DNA of 64,000 nucleotides from Minisyncoccota bacterium (GTDB lineage: Bacteria > Patescibacteriota > Minisyncoccia > UBA6257 > 1-14-0-10-44-23), in assembly GCA_041389085.1 (NCBI GenBank), contig JAWKSL010000001.1, positions 228,542-292,541 of the forward strand. Direction: 5' to 3'. The notes beneath the pieces are model-generated. The model saw nothing but the letters and a program-made list of their open reading frames with translations. It had not been told where the DNA came from and did no database searches. Below, piece after piece: positions 20,196-59,850 of this stretch. How positions within the stretch are numbered: the first letter of the stretch is position 1; every line of letters starts with the position of its first letter. The position numbers and the translations under genes are program-made.

Positions 20196-21371
20196 TTAGT
20201 CTACCCAGGTTGTTATTCCCCCACTCTCTTTTATCTGATTGTAGGCTGTCTCTGTTTGATCCGAGCCATTACTGTATTGAGAAAACATCTGGTCTCTTCC
20301 CGCGAGATACCCAGCGCGCGACTGCTCTACCCATGGATGTGCAGTGTTGTCTGCTAAGTAACTTCTCTGTTCTATTTCAATGAGTTGGCGGGCCACCTGT
20401 TGAGGGGTTTCATTATTGCCCTGTGTTACCACTTCATTTACCACTCCCTCTCTCCTCATTTGGTAAAATTGCTGCTCGGCATACTCATTGAATCCTGTTG
20501 GGTATTCGCTGTTCGCCTCCTGCCATGAGATGTATCCATCTGCTTGGTAGGAAATACGGTTTCCTTCGCTAAAGTTGTATGGGTTTTGATAGTTTCCTGT
20601 ATCGAGGGCGCTTATTCTCTCGGAAAAATAATGAGCTCGAAGAGCGGGATATTGGTTGAATAGAGCTTCTTGCGCTGCGGCAAACGCTGCATAATTTTCT
20701 GAAGAGAGAATTGTAGACTCATCTCTTAGCATTCGTCGTGCGGCTTGAAGCGCCCTACGGTCATCGTTGAGGTTGAACTCGTGTTTATAGCCATTTATAT
20801 ATGACTCTGTTTGGTTCGCTTGTCTGCTCGCCTGTGAGTTTTGTATAGCTTCTAGCTCGGCATCTCTTGCCTCAGCATTTCTTTGCTCTCGCATAGCCTC
20901 GAGCTCACGAATTGGTTCATCTGAGCTCCCAATGTTTAATATGCGCGGATTAATAGTGTAAAGAAGCACAGCAGCTCCAATAAGAAGCACAAGGCCAATA
21001 ATAGCGTCGAATATCCACCCCTTTGCGTCTGCCTGCACAGCTGGCTTCCCTGCTGAAGCTACGTAGCGCACTCCGGCAAAAACAATAATCGCGAGAGCTA
21101 AAAGAGCTCCGATGCCAATAGCCCAGCGATAGATAATGTTTATGTAGTTTCCTAGTCCTTGATGTGCATTTACCGAACCACCTGTTCCTGGAATGTCTAC
21201 AATTAGGTCTACGGTTCCGTCTGGGGTAGTTTTTGCGGCGGCGTCTACAGCGTCAGCATTTGCTTCTTGTGGTGTGGCCTCATCCTCAGCAGAAACACTC
21301 GCCGTGAGTGGGGCTAGTGCGATTAGTCCTGCAAAAAGCGCAGCGAAGAATGTCTTAGTTTTTAGGCTCAT
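20196..21371 (-). CDS. secreted VirB2/TrbC-pilin-like domain fused to a ~240-aa Q/N/Y-rich C-terminal domain
   Basis: A signal peptide is followed by two hydrophobic helices (YINIIYRWAIGIGALLALAIIVFAGV and WIFDAIIGLVLLIGAAVLLY), as in conjugative pilins. The family is not certain. Confidence 0.4.
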   Translation of the reverse strand: MSLKTKTFFAALFAGLIALAPLTASVSAEDEATPQEANADAVDAAAKTTPDGTVDLIVDIPGTGGSVNAHQGLGNYINIIYRWAIGIGALLALAIIVFAGVRYVASAGKPAVQADAKGWIFDAIIGLVLLIGAAVLLYTINPRILNIGSSDEPIRELEAMREQRNAEARDAELEAIQNSQASRQANQTESYINGYKHEFNLNDDRRALQAARRMLRDESTILSSENYAAFAAAQEALFNQYPALRAHYFSERISALDTGNYQNPYNFSEGNRISYQADGYISWQEANSEYPTGFNEYAEQQFYQMRREGVVNEVVTQGNNETPQQVARQLIEIEQRSYLADNTAHPWVEQSRAGYLAGRDQMFSQYSNGSDQTETAYNQIKESGGITTWVD

Positions 21372-23076
21372 TGCTTAATTGTTGGGCGATTAACTCTTCT
21401 GGGTTTGTGGTTATTATCTCATGCTCTGGATAGGACGCTACTATTTGAATAGCAACGTGGTTTAGTCCGGCAAAGAATAGCCCTTGTCCCACCTCTCCTT
21501 CAAGGAGAAGTGATTTTTCTCCATCTGAAAGATCAAATGTCTTGGTGATAGTGTCTATCATCGCTGGTGATTGGCGCAGAAGCAGCTGGAGGCTTGAGTT
21601 TGTGATTATCGGGCGCCCGTATGGCGAGAGAAGAAAGTCTTCTACGTCTTGAGTAATAGTAGTTACCCCAAGGTAGTACTTGCGTGCTCGTTTTACGAGG
21701 CCAAATAGGAATGTTGCACTGTCTTGGTTTTTCATTAAGAGCCACGCTTCGTCGATAACAACAACGCGGCGCTTTAGCTTTGAGCGAATAACTGCCCAGA
21801 TGAAGTTAAGAATTACATACATCGCTATTGGGCGAAGCTCTTCTTCAAGGTCGCGAAGAGAAAATACAATCATGCGGTTTGCGATGTCGATGTTGGTAGC
21901 CTGGTTTGCAAACCCTGCAAAGCTACCTTCGGTAAAGCGGTAGAGTCTGTCTGCAAGCCCCTCCCCTCCTTCAAACCCACGCAAGACGTTTTCCAGGTCT
22001 TTTAATACTGGTGGCTCTGAGTTGCTAAAGTCTTTTCCTGGGATGATGTCGCGCGCTGCATATGTTTCAGTAATAGCGCGGTCGATAAGAGCCTCTTCTT
22101 CTGGGCTAATTTCCCCTACCATGAGGCGGATAAGGCCGGCGAGGTTTACAATGTGGCTGCGAAGAGTTTCTGCTGGATCGTCTCCTTCAGGAATAACTGG
22201 GATTTGAAATGGGTTGATGTGGTCTTTTGATGAAAGTGAAATTCTAAAGTAGCTTCCTCCAACTGCGCGTGTAAGGCGCTCATATTCGTTTTCAGGGTCT
22301 ACAACAAGCACGTCGGTGCCTGTCATTAGAAGGCGGAGAATTTCGAGCTTTGCAGCGTATGATTTTCCAGATCCAGACTTTGCAAAGATAACCATGTTTG
22401 CGTTTTCAAGCTTGAAGCGGTCGAAGATGATCAAGCTGCTGTTGTGGCGGTTTATTCCATATAGGATTCCTTCTTCACTTGTAAGGTTGAGAGAAACAAA
22501 TGGGAAAGAAGAGCTGAGCGGCCCTGAGTTTAGCGGTGTAGTTACTTGCAGCTGATCTTTTGCGGTTGGGAGCGTAGTGTTAAAGCCTTCTACTTGCTGG
22601 AAGAGTGCTGGCTTTGCGTATACAAGGCGGCTTTCAAGAAGATTGGTTATTTCTGACTCTACTTTCTTAAGCTCTTTTAGAGAGTCTGCGTACATCGTTA
22701 TATACACTGCTGATTGAAAAAGGTGCTCGCGCGATTGCTGAAGTGAGTCTCGGAGAGATTCTACATCTTGGTGTGCTGTTTCAAGGAGTGGGCTTCGAAT
22801 GAGGCCTTTTTCTTGTTGCTCGATAAGTTGCGCTTCTATCTGAGTAGCTTTACGGCGAAGTTTTTTGAGTGCGAGCGAAGTCTCAACAGGAGCTACATAT
22901 ATACCTATATCGAGTAGGCCTGGAAAATTTACAATTGGGCTAAACCACCCTGTTGCTAAGTAGCGTGGGTATGAAAATACGAAGATTGTTTTTGCGAACT
23001 TGTTTCCTATTTGAAGGTGGTCGCTGCTGAGCTTTATCGCTGCTGGAGCGATGATGTTTTTTATCTGTTCGTTCAT
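21355..23076 (-). CDS. virB4: VirB4/TrbE/CagE-family T4SS ATPase (C-terminal ATPase part)
   Basis: FAKSGSGKSYAAK Walker A and VVVIDEAWLL Walker B; 573 aa. Confidence 0.75.
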   Translation of the reverse strand: MNEQIKNIIAPAAIKLSSDHLQIGNKFAKTIFVFSYPRYLATGWFSPIVNFPGLLDIGIYVAPVETSLALKKLRRKATQIEAQLIEQQEKGLIRSPLLETAHQDVESLRDSLQQSREHLFQSAVYITMYADSLKELKKVESEITNLLESRLVYAKPALFQQVEGFNTTLPTAKDQLQVTTPLNSGPLSSSFPFVSLNLTSEEGILYGINRHNSSLIIFDRFKLENANMVIFAKSGSGKSYAAKLEILRLLMTGTDVLVVDPENEYERLTRAVGGSYFRISLSSKDHINPFQIPVIPEGDDPAETLRSHIVNLAGLIRLMVGEISPEEEALIDRAITETYAARDIIPGKDFSNSEPPVLKDLENVLRGFEGGEGLADRLYRFTEGSFAGFANQATNIDIANRMIVFSLRDLEEELRPIAMYVILNFIWAVIRSKLKRRVVVIDEAWLLMKNQDSATFLFGLVKRARKYYLGVTTITQDVEDFLLSPYGRPIITNSSLQLLLRQSPAMIDTITKTFDLSDGEKSLLLEGEVGQGLFFAGLNHVAIQIVASYPEHEIITTNPEELIAQQLSNEPKN

Positions 23077-23077
23077 G

Positions 23078-23770
23078 CTAGGCGTTTGGTTGGTCTGTAG
23101 TTAAGACAAGACCTTTCTTTTCTATAGCCTCTGGGTTGTAGAGGTTGTAGAAAAGTTCAGTGGTTTCTTCGTCGTTGAGGGGTACTGCGCGAAGACCTAT
23201 CTGGTTTAGTGAAGACACTACTTCGTCAGTTCTTTGCTTGAGCTGACTCACGTATTCGCGAATGTTTTCGTCTCCTGATGTCTTTGTGAGAGGGTCGAGC
23301 TTATCCTTCGATATGAGTTTAAACAGTCCTCCAGCAGCCTTTTTGCCTGCTTGTGAGAGCTGCACTGGGTCGTATGGTACTACAACGAAGAACGATTTAT
23401 GCATGATAATGTTCTCGTTTACAAGGGTGCGGATAAACTCGCGATACTCTGCTATTTGTGTGCGAAGAAGCGGGTTTGGCTCCTTTACCTCTATTTGAGA
23501 AAGCCCTTCAATGTATCGGTCTACGTTTATCTTGCGTGAGTGTACGAAAATTTGAATTGGAAAGTCGAGTGAGTTGAGGAAGTTTTGATATCCAAATATA
23601 AGAGCCTCCTTCTCTTCTTCACTTTTTAGGTCGAAGTTTATACCAGAAACCATAACGATCTGGCGCAAAGCTCCGTTTTTAAGAATAGCTATACCATCCT
23701 TCACTTCTTTTACTTCAACAAACGATTGTGTTGGAAGTGACTGTTTTGGATTCACTTTTTCCTCTTGCAT
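23078..23770 (-). CDS. probable N-terminal domain of VirB4, encoded as a separate ORF
   Basis: Its stop (TAG) is 1 nt before the ATG of the ATPase ORF. 230 + 573 aa is about the length of a full VirB4. Confidence 0.4.
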   Translation of the reverse strand: MQEEKVNPKQSLPTQSFVEVKEVKDGIAILKNGALRQIVMVSGINFDLKSEEEKEALIFGYQNFLNSLDFPIQIFVHSRKINVDRYIEGLSQIEVKEPNPLLRTQIAEYREFIRTLVNENIIMHKSFFVVVPYDPVQLSQAGKKAAGGLFKLISKDKLDPLTKTSGDENIREYVSQLKQRTDEVVSSLNQIGLRAVPLNDEETTELFYNLYNPEAIEKKGLVLTTDQPNA

Positions 23771-23794
23771 ATATAAAAGTATAACAGGCTTAAG

Positions 23795-24310
23795 CTAGCG
23801 ATAATCGACGCGCTTGTATACGCGGCGTTCACCAGTAAGCTTTCTTTGTACTTCGAACTGCTCTACTGGCTCTTTAATTCGGTTAAATATCTTTAATCCC
23901 CCCTTCTCTCTTAACTTTATTGGCTGAGTTGTGGTGTTGAGCTTATCCCAAAGGTTTTCGAGCGGTTTTATCTGAGCTTCTTTCTCGCGAACCACCTTTA
24001 TATCAGGAAGGTTTGGAAGAAGTTCCTTTGTTTCTTCTTTTTTCCAAATATAAAACTTCGGTTGCCAGGTGAATTTGACTGCTGAAACGAGCAAGATAAT
24101 AAACGGGCGGCCATTTACCTTTATAAATGCAAAAGAGCTGGCAAGTGTGCCAACTACTACGGTGATTATAAGCCAGAGCCAGAGTTCAAAAAGGAAGAAA
24201 AAAAGAAAACTCGCGAGAGCTGCTATTGCGATGTAGATAAACTGCTTGAGCGTAAGAGGCCCAACTATCTTGTCTTCTATTTCGATAAATTGAGGTACTT
24301 GGAACTGCAC
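23795..24310 (-). CDS. PrgI/VirB3-like small membrane protein
   Basis: Two N-proximal TM helices (FIYIAIAALASFLFFFLF / LWLIITVVVGTLASSFAF) and a position next to VirB4. Confidence 0.45.
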   Translation of the reverse strand: MQFQVPQFIEIEDKIVGPLTLKQFIYIAIAALASFLFFFLFELWLWLIITVVVGTLASSFAFIKVNGRPFIILLVSAVKFTWQPKFYIWKKEETKELLPNLPDIKVVREKEAQIKPLENLWDKLNTTTQPIKLREKGGLKIFNRIKEPVEQFEVQRKLTGERRVYKRVDYR

Positions 24311-24334
24311 AAAATTAGAGTTAAGAGGTAAGAA

Positions 24335-24721
24335 TTAAGAATTAAGAGTTTTGGTCTTTTTTATCAACCCATTTAGTAGTTTACTACATTCAATCGCCAT
24401 GTCTGCTAGGTTTTTAAAACCATTTTCTTTTATATGTCCTAAGTCTCTAGCTATAAGTAGTTGGCTTTGTAGTTCAGTTAGAGACCCTAAGCTCATAGAG
24501 TAAAAATGCTGCCTGTCTTTCGGGGAGTGCCTACTAAAGCCCTCTGCTATATTTGAACATGTAGACACCGAGGCTCTTCTCATTTGGCTTGTAAGTGTAA
24601 ACATCTCTTCTTTCGGGAAAGCCGATGTGGCTTTGTATATTGCTAAGGTCAGCGAATGACATCTCCTCCACGCGATAAGGTCTGTGAACGATTTAATTTT
24701 CCCTGTGTTTTCTTTTTTCAC
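24335..24721 (-). CDS. four-helix-bundle protein (23S rRNA intervening-sequence protein / Avd-like family)
   Basis: 128 aa; the ...AEGFSRHS...FYSMSLGSLTELQSQL pattern is typical of this family. Confidence 0.7.
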   Translation of the reverse strand: MKKENTGKIKSFTDLIAWRRCHSLTLAIYKATSAFPKEEMFTLTSQMRRASVSTCSNIAEGFSRHSPKDRQHFYSMSLGSLTELQSQLLIARDLGHIKENGFKNLADMAIECSKLLNGLIKKTKTLNS

Positions 24722-24753
24722 TCTTACGTCTTATCTCTAAACTCTCGCTTCTA

Positions 24754-25590
24754 TTATTTCGGTAAGTTGTCTTTGTCTCCTAATATTGTTCTAAATGCGC
24801 TGTAGTGCACTACTTTTGGCTCTTCGTGCCTACTTTCAACCCTGCCTGGCTGCACCTGGGCTTCATTTTTATTTATGCCCTTAAAGAAGCTTCCGAAGCG
24901 GGCTTTTTCTTGCGGAGCTTGTTCTTGCTTCTGGGGTTGGCTTGCTGAGTGTGGGAGCTCAAAGCGAAACGCAGGGCCCGCGCTTTCTGCCGAAGGCTGC
25001 TTTGGTGCCTCTTCGTGAAGCATAAAAGGTTTCTCGGTTGTTTGCTGGTTTGTGTCGCTCTTTAAGTCTGGCTTTTGTGGTTGCTGCTTTGGCGCAAGGT
25101 CCGGCACAACACTTCCTTGTGCTGGTGTGGCTTGTCCTTCCAGCTGGGTTGTTGGTGCTGAGTCGGCTAAAGATCCTTTTCTTGCTTGCGCAAAGGCTGA
25201 AATAGAAGGCTTCTGTTGCGAAAGTGAATCTACTCCCCCTCTCGGTGTACTGATTTTTTCTATATCAACGCCCTGTACTGTTTTTAGGCCGATTGTAATC
25301 GGTGCCAGTACTTTATCTTTCAATATTGCTGCAATTTCTCCTGCTTTGTCTTCAGATATCTTTAAATCAGTAGCAAGCGCCTTTGTGAAGGCTTCTGGCG
25401 GGGTTAGCGTGAGTACGAGGCGCGTAATGTCGCGCGCGATTACAGGTAGGCGCTCTCCAAAAAACTGGTTTTCCTTGTTGATGTGTTCGATGACTTCTAC
25501 CACTCGGTCTGAAGTAAGCCAGTTCTTAATAGCCTCTGGAAGAAGGTAGAAAGTTTTTTGAGCTGTTTGTTGGCTAGAGAGAATATCCAT
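24754..25590 (-). CDS. hypothetical protein, Q/P-rich low-complexity C-terminal half
   Basis: ORF only; lies inside the T4SS-like cluster. Confidence 0.3.
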   Translation of the reverse strand: MDILSSQQTAQKTFYLLPEAIKNWLTSDRVVEVIEHINKENQFFGERLPVIARDITRLVLTLTPPEAFTKALATDLKISEDKAGEIAAILKDKVLAPITIGLKTVQGVDIEKISTPRGGVDSLSQQKPSISAFAQARKGSLADSAPTTQLEGQATPAQGSVVPDLAPKQQPQKPDLKSDTNQQTTEKPFMLHEEAPKQPSAESAGPAFRFELPHSASQPQKQEQAPQEKARFGSFFKGINKNEAQVQPGRVESRHEEPKVVHYSAFRTILGDKDNLPK

Positions 25591-25592
25591 CT

Positions 25593-28079
25593 TTAAGTGT
25601 AGCTTTGGTGTGTGTCTGCTCCTGCGTTATAATTTTGTTTTTTTGAGGATGGCTTTTGACCGGCCCCTGGGTCTCCTGGTGTTTGCATTAGTTTGTGCCA
25701 AGCCACTACCATGTCGCGGTCTTGTGTTAATTTCGCGATCTGCTCCTTCTGCTGCTTGCTGTCACCCCCCTGAGAGCGAATGGCGTTTATCTGGGTTTGT
25801 ATTTGAGCAGCGGCTGCTTCAGGACTTGCAGTTTGCCAGCTACCCTTTCCAAGACTTTCTTCTATAGCCTGTATCCAAGCCTCTTGTGTTGATGCTTTTG
25901 CATTCATTATCATCGCAGTTGCGCCTCTTACCTTCATGGCTTGTGCCAAGGCATATTTCTGCGCTGTATCGCCTAGGTCTTTAATAGGAAGATCGGCGAT
26001 CTTCTTTGCATCCAAGGATTCAAAGATACCTTTAATGATTTTATTTTCCGCCTCGGTGAGGTCGCTAGGCATGTCATTGCGTGCTTTTGCAAGGAATCCT
26101 TTAGCAATTTTGCGACTCTCTTTCTGGTCTTCAGTGCGAGCTTTTGTATTTTTATCCTTGAGCGCTTTCGCTATAGCCGCAAATTCAGGGTCCTTTTCGG
26201 AGAGCCCTCGAGCGATACTTTCTGCTAACTGTACACTTCCATTTGCGTAAGCGGCCTCAAGAAGTGCTTTTTTGTTCTTAAAGCTACTATCTCCGCTCGC
26301 TGCGCCCACATCGCTAAGAGCATTTGTTTTCGACAGGAGCATGCCAAGTGCAGCTTTTTCTTTGCTCGACATGGTGTCAATCTTGCTGAGCATGTCGAGA
26401 GCCTCTGGTTTTGATTTATCTTTATATTGATCGTTGAAGAACTTTAGGGTTGCCTCCTGGCTTGCCTTTTCTCCAAACGGAATAGATTTCTTTCCTACCG
26501 CGAAGTCTTCGGTCCACGCAAGCTTATCTTCTGCTATTTTTGGAATGTCTTTTAGGCGCGACTTTGAATCGAGGACTTCCCCTAGGGCTTTGCGCGGTGC
26601 AGCGGAAATTTTTCCTGCCCCCTTACCGAACCGTGCTATACCGCTTCCTACTGTTGCGAGTTTGTTAAATCCAAACTTAGAACCGGCTGCCCCAAGCCCC
26701 GATCCAATACCGGCAACAGCACCGGTGCTTGTTGCTTCAAATGCCTTTAAGGTTCCCCGCGTTGCTCCTCCTAGACCAACCTTACCAAGTGTTTTTGGTA
26801 TGCGTGAGCCGATAAATGCGCCGACTCCAAATGCGAGGCCTGCGCCCATAACTCCTCCAGCCTTTCCTGCCTTCATGGCTGCCCAAAGGAGCCCGAGAAG
26901 GACGAGGATTTGCATAACGTTGTTAAAGAAGTCGGTTCCGAGTAGTCCTCCGCTTCGTGAAGTGACGAGCATGGTACTAATCGCGAGGAAGACAAAGAAG
27001 GTTACCGTTGGTAGATAAATAAGCCACTTTATAAAGTTGTCCCACCACTTCTTTTGATATTCGCTTAGGCGAGGAATGAGTCCGAGTGCCCATACGAGTG
27101 GCATAAATATGAGAAGCGTTGCTATCCAAATGTTTCGCACAAGGACCATAATTCCAATTGCAACAAGGACCCCTGCCATAAGCCAGGTGATGATGTCGGC
27201 AAGAATCAGAGCTTGTACAAGTTTAAACCACACCGACCAACCTGTTTCGTCATTGTTTATATTGAATTTTAAGTCTTTACCGAGTTTAAATGCCTCTTCG
27301 TCTTCTACAAGTCCGCTTGATACCTTTGTGCCTTCATCGTTTAGCTTCACCGACTTATACTCAAAGTCCCCTGCATTTTTAATGCTTAGCAAACTTTGAG
27401 GTTGAAGCGCACCTCCGATTTTATCCGGGTGGATAGATTGGAGGAAGTTTGCTGTAAGTACATTTGATACATCGATAAATAGCCCAGCAATGAGGAAGCT
27501 GAAGTTTACGAGAATAGCTGCGAAGATGAGGCGTTTAAGTTGATTTTTGATATTGTAGCTCTTGCTTCGAAGCATGGTGCCAAAAGCCATAACGATTATG
27601 GCGATGACGAAGAAGAGGTTTGTAAGACTAAGGCTTACTTTAAAGCCGGCGGTGATTATCGGTAGCGTGATGATCGTGATTCCATACTTCACCATTGTGT
27701 ACACCATCCATGATCCAAAAGTGAGGATAAGTGCCCCTATTTTACCCACGAGGCTTAAGAAGAGCATGGTCACCGACTTAAAGCCAACCAAGATCCAGCA
27801 GTAGACGTCTGTTACTGATTTATCGCACTGGCCATACTTAATGTCGATACCTTCAAGATCAAAAAATCCATTCCCTTCTCCTATGCCAGGTACTGATGTC
27901 CCCGCAAAGTCTGCTGCTGAGGGTGGGTTGATGTTTGCACTTGCAGATGCTCCCTCCTCAGTTTCGTCATCTGCGAGCGCAACATTCACCCATGGTGTTG
28001 AAATAGGCAGGAGCGACAGTAGCACAAGCGCGATCATCGCTGCGGCAAATATTTTTTTTGTGATTTTTTTAGCTAGCAT
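25593..28079 (-). CDS. polytopic membrane protein, VirB6/TrbL-like, with long hydrophilic C-terminal extension
   Basis: Signal sequence, six or more TM helices, and cluster context. Confidence 0.5.
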   Translation of the reverse strand: MLAKKITKKIFAAAMIALVLLSLLPISTPWVNVALADDETEEGASASANINPPSAADFAGTSVPGIGEGNGFFDLEGIDIKYGQCDKSVTDVYCWILVGFKSVTMLFLSLVGKIGALILTFGSWMVYTMVKYGITIITLPIITAGFKVSLSLTNLFFVIAIIVMAFGTMLRSKSYNIKNQLKRLIFAAILVNFSFLIAGLFIDVSNVLTANFLQSIHPDKIGGALQPQSLLSIKNAGDFEYKSVKLNDEGTKVSSGLVEDEEAFKLGKDLKFNINNDETGWSVWFKLVQALILADIITWLMAGVLVAIGIMVLVRNIWIATLLIFMPLVWALGLIPRLSEYQKKWWDNFIKWLIYLPTVTFFVFLAISTMLVTSRSGGLLGTDFFNNVMQILVLLGLLWAAMKAGKAGGVMGAGLAFGVGAFIGSRIPKTLGKVGLGGATRGTLKAFEATSTGAVAGIGSGLGAAGSKFGFNKLATVGSGIARFGKGAGKISAAPRKALGEVLDSKSRLKDIPKIAEDKLAWTEDFAVGKKSIPFGEKASQEATLKFFNDQYKDKSKPEALDMLSKIDTMSSKEKAALGMLLSKTNALSDVGAASGDSSFKNKKALLEAAYANGSVQLAESIARGLSEKDPEFAAIAKALKDKNTKARTEDQKESRKIAKGFLAKARNDMPSDLTEAENKIIKGIFESLDAKKIADLPIKDLGDTAQKYALAQAMKVRGATAMIMNAKASTQEAWIQAIEESLGKGSWQTASPEAAAAQIQTQINAIRSQGGDSKQQKEQIAKLTQDRDMVVAWHKLMQTPGDPGAGQKPSSKKQNYNAGADTHQSYT

Positions 28080-29536
28080 GAGAATATTTTGCTATCGATA
28101 TAGTCGTCTGCCTGGTTGTATGAAGCTTGAGCTTCCATCTTTTTGCTTTGTACGAGTGGTGGAGTTGCAAGTGAGCCTATTTCTACCTGAAGGCGAACAA
28201 TCTCTCTCCATGCACTTGCCCCTTCGTCGGTGCTTAGCTCTTCTATTTCTACTTTGTAGGCTTCAAGCGATTGAATGTCAGCGAGGATAGAAGCATCTTT
28301 TGCTGCAAGGATGGCGATGTTTGCCTGCACGGCTTCTCTTTCATCGTCTACATCGCAAATGCTTTGCTTACCATCAAGGTCGTCGTCGTAGTCTTCCCAA
28401 AGTGCTTTTTCTGCACGCACAATTTCAACCATCTCTTCGTAGAGGGCGATGCTTGCGTCTATGTTTGCTACCATGTCTTCTTTTGCATTCTCAAACGGCG
28501 CGCCAATACTTGTTTGGTAAGCTTGGCAGGCTGCGAGCGCGTCTGAGCTTAGACCTGAGCACGGATTTGCATTTGTATTTACAAAGTCTGCACCGCGGTT
28601 GTCGTTTCGGCTAAGGCCACGAAGCCCTTCTACTCCGGTGCGTACAAGACGGTTGAAGAGCGCGTTCGCTATAGCTCCCGCGTATTCTGAAAGTTGGTCT
28701 GCATTTACGATAAAGTCGAAGTCTATTCCTACTGCATCCTTCACGAGATCGCCCACCACTGATCCTGGGGTGGTAATTGTACACTTTACGTCTCCTGGTA
28801 TACCGTCTCCGTCTATGTCTGGGCCGGTGCCTCCTTCCTCTTGGCAACTTTTTGTTCCGATAAATCCATCTCCAGCTCGGGCGTCTTCAAGCGCGGTGAA
28901 CTGAGCGGCAGATATTCTTCTGTGCTTCTCTTCCTCTAATAGAATGTAGCTACCAAAGATATTGTTTTGCGGCTCCCATGCAGCTTGGTAAGCAACCCAA
29001 CTTCCGTTTTCAAAGTCGGCGTAGAAGTTTTCGATATTTCCAACTATGTCGTCGAGCGTACATCTTGCTTGGTTTTGGAAGCGAGACTCTGGTGCGAGTG
29101 CAATTCGTAGCTGCGCGCTAAATGGGCTGCAGAGAAAGCCGAGCCCTATTTCTTGCGCCAAATCTCCCACTGCTTGGCTAGCGATGTCGTCAAGAAATGC
29201 GCTCCAGTCGGTTACGAAGCGTGGTTCGTCTCCTCCGTTTATCCATTGAATAATGTCGTCTACCATCATGTCTAAAAGACGCTTTTTGAGCGTCTCGAGG
29301 ATAAATGACTGAGCCCATTCAAAGCTTTGTTGAGTCGTTTCTGCCGTTGTCGCTGCTGCGATTGTTGCGATACTTCCGTCTATTGATGGAAGGCTACTGA
29401 TAAAGTCGAGGTGTCCGCCTACTACGTGTACGGTGAGCGCTTGGGCCTTTTGTGGCTTGAGAGTGAGAGAAAGTGGCGCAAGCGTAGCTACTACGAGAAG
29501 AGTGGCAGTAAGTTTTTTAAGTGTTTCAAAATTCAT
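28073..29536 (-). CDS. secreted hypothetical protein (T4SS-cluster associated)
   Basis: Signal peptide MNFETLKKLTATLLVVATLAPLS; no recognisable domain. Confidence 0.35.
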   Translation of the reverse strand: MNFETLKKLTATLLVVATLAPLSLTLKPQKAQALTVHVVGGHLDFISSLPSIDGSIATIAAATTAETTQQSFEWAQSFILETLKKRLLDMMVDDIIQWINGGDEPRFVTDWSAFLDDIASQAVGDLAQEIGLGFLCSPFSAQLRIALAPESRFQNQARCTLDDIVGNIENFYADFENGSWVAYQAAWEPQNNIFGSYILLEEEKHRRISAAQFTALEDARAGDGFIGTKSCQEEGGTGPDIDGDGIPGDVKCTITTPGSVVGDLVKDAVGIDFDFIVNADQLSEYAGAIANALFNRLVRTGVEGLRGLSRNDNRGADFVNTNANPCSGLSSDALAACQAYQTSIGAPFENAKEDMVANIDASIALYEEMVEIVRAEKALWEDYDDDLDGKQSICDVDDEREAVQANIAILAAKDASILADIQSLEAYKVEIEELSTDEGASAWREIVRLQVEIGSLATPPLVQSKKMEAQASYNQADDYIDSKIFSC

Positions 29537-31329: not shown

Positions 31330-31356
31330 CGATGGTGCTCTTGAGGAGGTGTTGGG

Positions 31357-31605
31357 ATGTTCCGATCCACCACCTATTTGCTTCTCCTCGGCTTCTCTCT
31401 TGTTGGAGGGGCTGCGGTCATGACAGCTCTTCTGATGGTCAGCCTTGCGCTGACCGCGCACCTGCCGCCATGGCTTGAACTCGCGGCTCGCCTCGCGCTG
31501 GTTTTCTCAGTGCTGCGCTGGGCAGGCCCGGCCCTCGGGAGGCTTCTCATTCCGATGTTCCGAGCTTACATTTCAGCTCGGAACGCCAACCCTAGCGACT
31601 TGTAG
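31357..31605 (+). CDS. small (82 aa) membrane protein, GC-rich (cassette B), weak paralog of 2084-2317
   Basis: SD gaggagg; hydrophobic; shares an AHxPPWL motif with the cassette A protein. Confidence 0.5.
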   Translation: MFRSTTYLLLLGFSLVGGAAVMTALLMVSLALTAHLPPWLELAARLALVFSVLRWAGPALGRLLIPMFRAYISARNANPSDL

Positions 31606-31626
31606 TCGCTGGGGTTCAACTTTTCT
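31590..31626 (+). terminator. conserved terminator hairpin (~90% identical to 2331-2368)
   Basis: ccctagcgacttgtagtcgctgggg followed by ttcaactttt. Confidence 0.7.
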
Positions 31627-58704: not shown

Positions 58705-59055
58705 TTACCAAATAATCAATGAAACTATAGACCCAATAACCAATATCATACCAATAAGGAATGGTGTTGCTGGGTTGTTGGATGCTAGGGGTGATCCTGG
58801 TAAGAATGCACCTGCAAATATGAGCGCCGGTATCCATAAAAATAGACCTGCCCACCATGCAATTAAAACAAATCCAAGCACTATTTCTGCAACTAGCAAC
58901 AAAGTCGCGAGGATTGGAAGAGTAATCTTTGTTGTTTTTGACGAAAACCATAGAGGCGCATCTAATGGACTCACGCCTCCGGGCCCTGGCTGTTTGCCAT
59001 AAGCGCCTTGAACTAAGGCCGCGCCGAAGCAGAATATTAAGTATTTAATTAGCAT
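58705..59055 (-). CDS. hypothetical polytopic membrane protein
   Basis: Hydrophobic ORF only. Confidence 0.3.
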   Translation of the reverse strand: MLIKYLIFCFGAALVQGAYGKQPGPGGVSPLDAPLWFSSKTTKITLPILATLLLVAEIVLGFVLIAWWAGLFLWIPALIFAGAFLPGSPLASNNPATPFLIGMILVIGSIVSLIIW

Positions 59056-59091
59056 TGATCTAGTTTTTCAAAATGTTTGTATTTCTTTATG

Positions 59092-59163
59092 TGCCTCCGG
59101 CAGGAATCGAACCTGCATCAAGGGCTTAGAAGACCCTTGCTTTATCCATTAAGCTACGGAGGC
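59092..59163 (-). tRNA. tRNA-Arg (TCT)
   Basis: Manual cloverleaf: anticodon loop CUUCUAA, T-loop TTCGATT. Confidence 0.75.
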
Positions 59164-59205
59164 TAATGTGCCATTTATATCAGAGCAGCTCCTTATAGTA
59201 AATGC

Positions 59206-59520
59206 TTAGCTATACAAGAGCGCTCCAAGCACCATAGAGGCGTTTACGAGCACCCATAGGATGTTTGTAAGGACGATAGGTTTGTCGCGATGGAGGGCGC
59301 CGTAGAATATCCAAAATATGTTTAGGAAGATAAAGGTGGCCCATGTTATTGGCTCAATACTTGAGCCGTTTTTTTCAAAAAAGACTTTTGCTACTTGAGG
59401 CAGTGTTGCGACCGGACTTCCGATAGCGGCAACGTAGATGAGCTTGTCTACAACCCTAAAGCGATGTGTGTGCTTTTTTGCTCGTGATAGTTCGTGTTGT
59501 CCTTGTGGCATACCTTCCAT
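59206..59520 (-). CDS. hypothetical membrane protein
   Basis: ORF with two C-terminal TM helices. The longer ORF-track N-terminus overlaps the att-like repeat. Confidence 0.3.
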   Translation of the reverse strand: MEGMPQGQHELSRAKKHTHRFRVVDKLIYVAAIGSPVATLPQVAKVFFEKNGSSIEPITWATFIFLNIFWIFYGALHRDKPIVLTNILWVLVNASMVLGALLYS

Positions 59521-59532
59521 TGTAAACCATAA

Positions 59533-59583
59533 ATCAAAAACACGACGCAAGGTCGTGTCTCTGATTTTGTCGGGCCGCCGGGA
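59533..59583. repeat. 51-bp direct repeat copy 1 (tRNA-Pro 3' end + terminator hairpin)
   Basis: atcaaaaacacgacgcaaggtcgtgtctctgattttgtcgggccgccggga is identical to 59710-59760. Confidence 0.8.
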
Positions 59584-59709
59584 CGCTTCGCTATCTCACT
59601 CTCTGAAAACCCACGGTTTTCCAGCGCATGCTTCGCGTGCTGCCTTCCTACACGGGGAACTTCCGTTCCCCGACCCCCTCCCGTCCGATTCCCGGCCCGT
59701 ACTTTAGTA

Positions 59710-59760
59710 ATCAAAAACACGACGCAAGGTCGTGTCTCTGATTTTGTCGGGCCGCCGGGA
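59710..59760. repeat. 51-bp direct repeat copy 2 (includes the genuine tRNA-Pro 3' end and its terminator)
   Basis: Perfect match to 59533-59583. Confidence 0.8.
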
Positions 59761-59817
59761 ATCGAACCCGGGCCGCACGCTCCCAAAGCGCGCATACTAC
59801 CATTATACGACGGCCCG
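59747..59817 (-). tRNA. tRNA-Pro (TGG)
   Basis: Manual cloverleaf: anticodon loop UUUGGGA, T-loop TTCGATT; the D-stem is imperfect. Confidence 0.7.
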
Positions 59818-59850
59818 ATATAGGAAGTACCTTATTGGTACTTCCCTACT

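Follow-up and report, generated by a model that had tools for sequence, protein, structure and literature searches.

A duplicated tRNA-Pro 3' end and terminator around a conserved spacer in a Patescibacteria tRNA-Pro/tRNA-Arg cluster

Organization of the repeat and its surroundings

Partial duplications of tRNA genes are routinely taken as the scars of integrases, and the question raised by the locus described here is whether such a duplication marks a former integration site or a sequence that has been maintained for another reason. The longest repeat of the window, that is, of the whole 64-kb stretch of DNA analysed, is a perfect 52-nt direct repeat located at positions 59532–59583 and 59709–59760, with a start-to-start distance of 177 nt. 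The initial annotation had described a perfect duplication, 177 bp apart, of the 3' end of a tRNA-Pro gene together with its terminator, and the repeat search and the tRNA-Pro calls agree on this point; the unit is 52 nt long and starts at 59532, rather than spanning the 51 bp first reported. The 38-nt hairpin part of the repeat was reproduced in none of 100 shuffles.

Read on the minus strand, the repeat unit consists of TCCCGGCGGCCCGA, followed by CAAAATCAG and then by a hairpin with a U-run. TCCCGGCGGCCCGA corresponds to the last 14 nt of tRNA-Pro (tRNA positions 60–73, from T60 to the discriminator A73), and CAAAATCAG is the 9-nt trailer that lies between the end of the tRNA and the hairpin. 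The left boundary of the repeat coincides with the T-loop/T-stem boundary of tRNA-Pro. Copy A (59709–59760, minus strand) carries tRNA positions 60–73, the trailer and hairpin A, and is part of the tRNA-Pro(UGG) gene, which extends from 59746/59747 to 59817 on the minus strand, has no encoded CCA, and is recognized by ARAGORN and by Rfam (RF00005, 58.9 bits). Copy B (59532–59583, minus strand) is formed by an orphan 14-nt tRNA-Pro end, the trailer and hairpin B, and is located 20 nt upstream of the start of a gene for a SemiSWEET transporter.

Hairpin A (59709–59743, minus strand) comprises a 15-bp extended stem with two G·U pairs, a 5-nt loop (CUUGC) and a U-run, and hairpin B (59532–59566, minus strand) is a second copy of the same stem-loop. 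The calculated folding energy is −19.0 kcal/mol on the minus strand versus −12.9 kcal/mol on the plus strand, where two A·C mismatches replace the G·U pairs and the U-run is displaced; because of this difference, the hairpins are assigned to the minus strand. Both copies display the features of an intrinsic (Rho-independent) terminator, with a 15-bp stem of −19 kcal/mol followed by UUUUUGAUU on the minus strand, and hairpin A is the predicted intrinsic terminator of tRNA-Pro. Elsewhere in the window, a 36-nt terminator-like module, ACCCYAGCGACTYGTAGTCGCTGGGGTTCAACTTTT, is found at 2330–2365 and 31589–31624, 29 kb apart and with 94% identity, each copy lying 3' of an unrelated small plus-strand ORF. 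Terminator modules that are nearly identical are thus found repeatedly in this genome.

The flanking proteins identify the host as a Paceibacterota/Nomurabacteria-type Patescibacteria MAG, and the genes of the window serve housekeeping functions (dnaA, dnaN, recA, ruvB/C, PNPase and others). The order on the minus strand is a gene for a 200-aa protein, tRNA-Pro, hairpin A, a spacer here called Y, copy B, the SemiSWEET gene, tRNA-Arg(UCU) and a 116-aa ORF, beyond which the RNR gene is found on the plus strand, its product being 100% identical to NCBI MEZ4156660.1. The SemiSWEET gene (59206–59511, minus strand; 101 aa, NCBI MEZ4156662.1) matches the Pfam family MtN3_slv with 26.1 bits, above the cut-off, and tRNA-Arg(UCU) (59091–59163, minus strand) is called by both ARAGORN and Rfam. 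Searches for homologues of SemiSWEET and of the 200-aa neighbour returned the MAG's own proteins only. A TACAAT box is present at 59519–59524, just after hairpin B and 7 nt upstream of the SemiSWEET start codon (59511); as a promoter, it would imply a leaderless or near-leaderless SemiSWEET mRNA, and no −35 element is evident.

Spacer Y (59584–59708, minus strand) is 125 nt long and has a GC content of 60%, which places it within the top 2.3% of 125-nt windows. No Rfam family was detected on it, and the E-value mode gave only sub-threshold noise, such as tmRNA_permuted with 20.9 bits. A third, degenerate fragment resembling a tRNA T-arm and acceptor had been noted in the spacer by the initial annotation. 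The fragment is indeed present, and its orientation is inverted: positions 59680–59700 of the plus strand hold a degenerate copy of the T-loop/acceptor 3' end of tRNA-Pro (cccgtccgattcccgg---cccgt), which over 14 nt is 93% complementary to the tRNA-Pro 3' end and sits at the tRNA-proximal start of Y. Together, the tRNA 3' half, hairpin A and the inverted fragment form a long quasi-palindrome (z = −6.3). The folding of Y alone, compared with shuffled sequences, gives z = −0.1 on the minus strand and z = −2.8 on the plus strand, and Y with the closing helix described below gives z = −1.3/−1.4 on the minus strand.

A search of the window and of relatives gave no source of Y, and BLAST revealed no similarity to Y in any fetched locus, phage or plasmid. 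An alignment by MAFFT of the outgroup tRNA-Arg to the hairpin and Y was rejected, as BLAST gave no support for it. GC-rich intergenic stretches were considered as paralogues of Y; the one examined, at 31345–31620, consists of a small ORF and the shared terminator module. ARAGORN and Rfam give only five canonical tRNAs and none in Y. A tRNA, with or without an intron, and a tRNA-like gene were both discarded as identities of Y with copy B, since D- and T-arms are lacking and the sister lineage has lost the acceptor register, the 7-bp acceptor-like pairing of the window included. A terminator-targeting element, be it IS200/IS605-type, group II (class C) or a ribozyme, was likewise discarded, given that no Rfam signal, matching end hairpins or associated ORF were found.

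The insertion and its conservation in a sister lineage

The two lineages nearest by RNR (78% identity) in a database of 5.8 billion proteins were used as outgroups, one (P0003) represented on 22 Logan contigs and the other (P0002) in GCA_030699515.1. The genes for RNR, the 200-aa protein, an ECF sigma factor and FtsH retain this order in the outgroups, and in both of them tRNA-Pro and its downstream partner tRNA-Arg are separated by a gap of 7–11 nt. The trailer CAAAATCAG is homologous to these Pro–Arg spacers (CAAATCAGCAC, also given as CAAATCAG.., and CATATTCA). Because tRNA-Pro directly precedes tRNA-Arg in the outgroups, the DNA that lies between the two genes in the window (59164–59737, minus strand) is an insertion of about 575 nt in the window's lineage. 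It comprises hairpin A, Y, copy B and SemiSWEET, is shared by the window and the sister clade, and is absent from the outgroup contigs L081–L090 and L091. A Pro–Arg tRNA operon is thus split here by an acquired transporter gene. Two consequences follow for the repeat: its hairpin part is not ancestral attB sequence and, as the insertion runs to tRNA-Arg, the two copies do not delimit the inserted DNA. A further search of genome contigs with RNR yielded 80 loci at ≤72% identity, and tRNA synteny is lost in the 40 that were scanned for tRNAs, so that these loci give no information on the present site.

The sister lineage is the second member of the 90% clusters of RNR and of the 200-aa protein, and is represented by three contigs (L093, L094 and L095) from Logan assemblies of other runs. 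It shares 96–97% protein identity with the window and 64% identity at four-fold degenerate sites (divergence 0.359). Contig L093 contains tRNA-Pro, the hairpin and Y in this order. The tRNA is identical to that of the window at 71 of 71 positions; the trailer and hairpin are identical at all 33 non-loop positions, with four of the five loop bases changed; and a 16–18-nt stretch formed by the linker and the outer half of the inverted fragment shows about 50% identity. The core of Y, GGAATCGGAC...GGAAGGCAG (59640–59692, minus strand), follows up to the end of the contig with a single difference in 53 nt, so that 53 of the 125 nt of Y are visible in the sister. The probability of one difference or fewer in 53 is 1.8 × 10^-9 if the four-fold-site divergence (0.359) applies, and 0.0056 if the overall coding divergence is used. 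Since invariant segments alternate with freely diverged ones, purifying selection is favoured over recent transfer. As judged from these substitutions, the 53 visible bases of the Y core and the hairpin stems are under strong purifying selection.

The evidence for copy B in the sister is indirect and constitutes the weakest link of the analysis. Logan contigs are built with k = 31, contain each 31-mer once and drop singleton k-mers (PMC12424806). Contig L094 stops exactly 30 nt into the repeat unit, a length that equals k−1. A contig coming from the tRNA side would break there if the first 31-mer of the unit had a second predecessor, which suggests that the sister, too, carries a copy B that begins at the same left boundary and matches copy A over its first 30 nt. 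Contig L093, which stems from another run, reads through the unit, a difference that we explain by low coverage at the second junction. On contig L095 the sister SemiSWEET ortholog adjoins tRNA-Arg, with 40 of 42 visible residues identical. The conservation evidence thus comes from two lineages, with 53 of 125 nt of Y seen in the sister and the sister duplication read from one contig end, and on this basis the insertion and, probably, the duplication are older than the split of the two lineages, which differ by 36% at neutral sites. Were copy B neutral, the chance of finding no change in 28 unconstrained sites (the 23 non-hairpin bases plus the loop) would be 0.64^28, or about 4 × 10^-6, which argues that copy B has been under selection or kept identical by gene conversion.

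The pairing potential of the inverted fragment was also compared. Its duplex with the tRNA 3' half has a calculated energy of about −34 kcal/mol in both the window and the sister, and of about −19 kcal/mol with the 14-nt orphan end. Half of the fragment has diverged in the sister, and the pairing to the tRNA end is kept through different sequences and registers. Two of the sister changes in the fragment are C>U substitutions that give G·U pairs on the minus strand only. The single substitution in the core, on the other hand, breaks an A–U pair on the minus strand and leaves a G·U pair on the plus strand.

Readings of the duplicated unit

The reading that we favour, with a probability of about 0.45, is that of an old, lineage-specific insertion that has been maintained, in which Y and copy B would form a structured non-coding RNA unit of the minus strand. 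According to it, the ancestor shared by the MAG and its sister would have acquired the insertion of about 575 bp between tRNA-Pro and tRNA-Arg, and the 52-bp repeat would be a module made of the tRNA-Pro 3' end, the trailer and an intrinsic terminator that is used twice. Copy A would end the tRNA-Pro transcript, and a transcript from Y would stop at hairpin B. Within this transcript, the 5' anti-tRNA-end segment may pair with the 3' orphan tRNA-Pro end in a closing helix around three hairpins. Y with copy B may act as an sRNA or, with SemiSWEET and tRNA-Arg lying downstream on the minus strand, as a leader or attenuator; the leader option is suggested by the layout, in which a conserved GC-rich element is followed by a terminator and, 20 nt further on, by the start of a transporter gene. 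Site-specific or homology-driven recombination may have given rise to the insertion and the duplication, and the identity of the copies would have been kept later by selection or gene conversion. Recombination of either kind at the tRNA end is a reasonable guess for the arrival route.

This putative RNA unit resembles terminator-based leaders such as riboswitches and attenuators in its GC-rich multi-hairpin element, possible closing helix, terminator and transporter gene. Unlike riboswitch leaders, Y has no Rfam family, predicted antiterminator, significant folding z-score or identified promoter: inspection gave no antiterminator alternative, and neither a scan nor examination by eye gave a convincing promoter. 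A literature search for a link between SemiSWEET and riboswitches found none. A further difference is that the 'expression platform' of the window is an exact copy of the neighbouring tRNA tail and terminator, a configuration that, to our knowledge, is present in no known riboswitch class. With tRNA-like and tRNA-derived small RNAs the unit shares a location in a tRNA operon, an end formed by the tRNA acceptor 3' strand, the discriminator and the trailer with terminator, and a conservation as tight as that of the tRNAs. Unlike tRNA-like RNAs, it has no cloverleaf and no T-arm, and its acceptor-like 7-bp helix, seen in the window, is not conserved in the sister.

A more specific form of the RNA reading, which we put forward as speculation of small probability, is that Y and copy B represent an undescribed structured RNA of Paceibacterota, an attenuator or sRNA that would combine an anti-T-arm/anti-acceptor segment with an orphan tRNA-Pro end and a borrowed terminator. 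If true, it could be a tRNA-linked attenuator gating the read-through from tRNA-Pro to SemiSWEET and tRNA-Arg or, alternatively, an sRNA with tRNA 3' halves as its partners.

Among the alternatives, the one that survives best is the att-site footprint advanced by the initial annotation, and we consider it unlikely. It holds that an element with a tyrosine or serine recombinase integrated at the tRNA-Pro 3' end, that the 52-mers are attL and attR, and that Y is a functionless CIME-like remnant, possibly left after tandem accretion. Direct repeats of tRNA and tmRNA 3' ends, att-flanked remnants without integrase (CIMEs) and tandem arrays arising by accretion are all documented (PMC5704250, PMC3146451). 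The locus resembles such att repeats, CIMEs and the Dehalococcoides ssrA islands of the same reports in that the repeat includes the 3' part of the target tRNA gene and starts near the T-loop, in the presence of lineage-specific DNA beside a rearrangement-prone tRNA cluster, and in having no recombination genes between the repeats. The neighbouring replacement of tRNA-Arg and the 116-aa ORF, described below, marks the site as a hot spot, and the locus is clearly recombination-prone. The origin proposed by the initial annotation is therefore supported in part, as an insertion at the tRNA-Pro end is seen relative to the outgroups; the description of the present locus as a scar is not supported.

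Several observations argue against such a scar. Att-type repeats would bracket the inserted DNA, whereas the window copies enclose 125 nt only and the insertion continues through SemiSWEET to tRNA-Arg, at which end there is no repeat. The 52-mer would be a duplicated ancestral attB, yet it runs 38 nt past the tRNA through a complete, non-ancestral terminator, and 29 of its 52 bases (the hairpin) are themselves inserted DNA. The 40 ORFs of the window include no integrase, recombinase, resolvase or transposase, and the flanks are syntenic housekeeping genes. Exact patterns for the repeat junction, two segments of Y and the tRNA-Pro 3' end had no match in viral contigs, the repeat junction and a degenerate tRNA-Pro pattern had none in JGI metagenomes, and blastn of the repeat–Y–repeat block had none among phages and plasmids. 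No attP or corresponding element was found in these collections and no empty site was seen, in a lineage that is barely sampled and whose sole close relative is occupied. A CIME-like remnant would be expected to decay, but the spacer shows no mobile-element similarity and keeps 52 of 53 visible bases in a sister with 36% neutral divergence. Nor does simple integration make an inverted tRNA fragment. Finally, the initial annotation had itself named a duplication carried by relatives without any mobile element as evidence against integration, and this is the state of the locus in the one close relative available.

A non-functional local rearrangement is more doubtful. Template switching or slippage at the terminator palindrome would have produced the inverted tRNA end, filler sequence and a re-copied 52-mer, the identity of the copies being due to a recent event. 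The quasi-palindrome (z = −6.3) is a typical product of fold-back synthesis, and the terminator modules at 2330 and 31589 offer a parallel elsewhere in the genome. The hairpin–Y junction, however, is common to the 36%-diverged lineage, which makes the event old, and yet the repeat is perfect and Y is conserved; the failure to find a source of Y in the window or in relatives also speaks against it.

We regard as improbable the proposal that Y is a small RNA gene of the plus strand, antisense to the tRNA operon, with C-rich motifs (CCCCCUCCC, CCUUCC) pairing Shine-Dalgarno-like sequences and with the hairpins serving as bidirectional insulators. The stronger plus-strand folding of Y (z = −2.8 versus −0.1), the lone core substitution, which keeps the main hairpin through a G·U pair on that strand, and a terminator scan that marks both hairpins as terminator-like on the plus strand are all in agreement with it. 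Against it, the hairpins are weaker in this orientation, with two A·C mismatches and a displaced U-run, a scan found no plus-strand promoter, and in the 5' fragment the C>U changes are compatible with pairing on the minus strand only; moreover, the strand evidence amounts to a single substitution. An assembly artefact would be compatible with the species being represented by one MAG only, and is highly improbable given that independent Logan assemblies reproduce the tRNA-Pro/hairpin/Y junction (L093) and a graph break at the repeat boundary (L094).

Duplication of a tRNA 3' end at an insertion hot spot is known; what is unusual here is that a whole terminator is part of the duplicated unit and that the two copies enclose non-coding DNA under strong conservation. 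Both the presumed scar and its enclosed DNA have come unbroken through the separation of two lineages whose synonymous sites are saturated with change, which points either to a functional non-coding RNA in Patescibacteria or to an unusual event in which the tail and terminator of a tRNA were exapted or gene-converted. Should Y be a regulatory RNA, it would add a new motif to a phylum in which hardly any RNA regulators have been characterised; should it not be, the locus would call for caution in naming each tRNA 3'-end repeat an att site.

Neighbouring and related loci

The tRNA cluster has undergone changes beyond the insertion. The tRNA-Arg(UCU) of the window differs at about one-third of positions from tRNA-Arg(UCU) of the sister and the outgroups, and is accompanied by the 116-aa membrane ORF (58705–59055), which is absent from the sister (L095, positions 2480–2660 compared), where the tRNA-Arg sequence is outgroup-like. 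From these sequences, the segment 58705–59163 appears to be the product of a later, second event at the cluster, either a replacement or an insertion, in which the tRNA gene was swapped as well. On the other side, in the gap between the 200-aa gene and tRNA-Pro, a hairpin at 59823–59845 is replaced in the sister (L093, around 790–812) by a different hairpin, with 70% identity overall. This swap provides a local yardstick for the divergence of intergenic DNA that is unconstrained or constrained in structure only.

Far from the repeat, at approximately 20196–29536 and a few kb from dnaA/dnaN, the window contains a block resembling a type IV secretion or conjugation system, with a T4SS pilin domain, a TraG-type P-loop ATPase, a PrgI-family protein, and two ORFs of 828 and 487 aa without Pfam match.

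Two observations concern tRNA genes of the relatives. ARAGORN reports a tRNA-Ser(ACT) in five Paceibacterota loci (L025, 11161–11248; L027, 12861–12950; L039, 13349–13436; L040, 13108–13197; L044, 13847–13934), in four of which it is divergent from the adjoining tRNA-Ser(GCT); the ACT anticodon is unusual for bacteria. In the 78% relative, tRNA-His (L081, 7221–7292) has the T-loop TCCGATT, with a C at the position of U55, a residue of the tRNA T-loop that is usually universal. The same variant T-loop recurs in the inverted fragment of Y (gtccgattccc).
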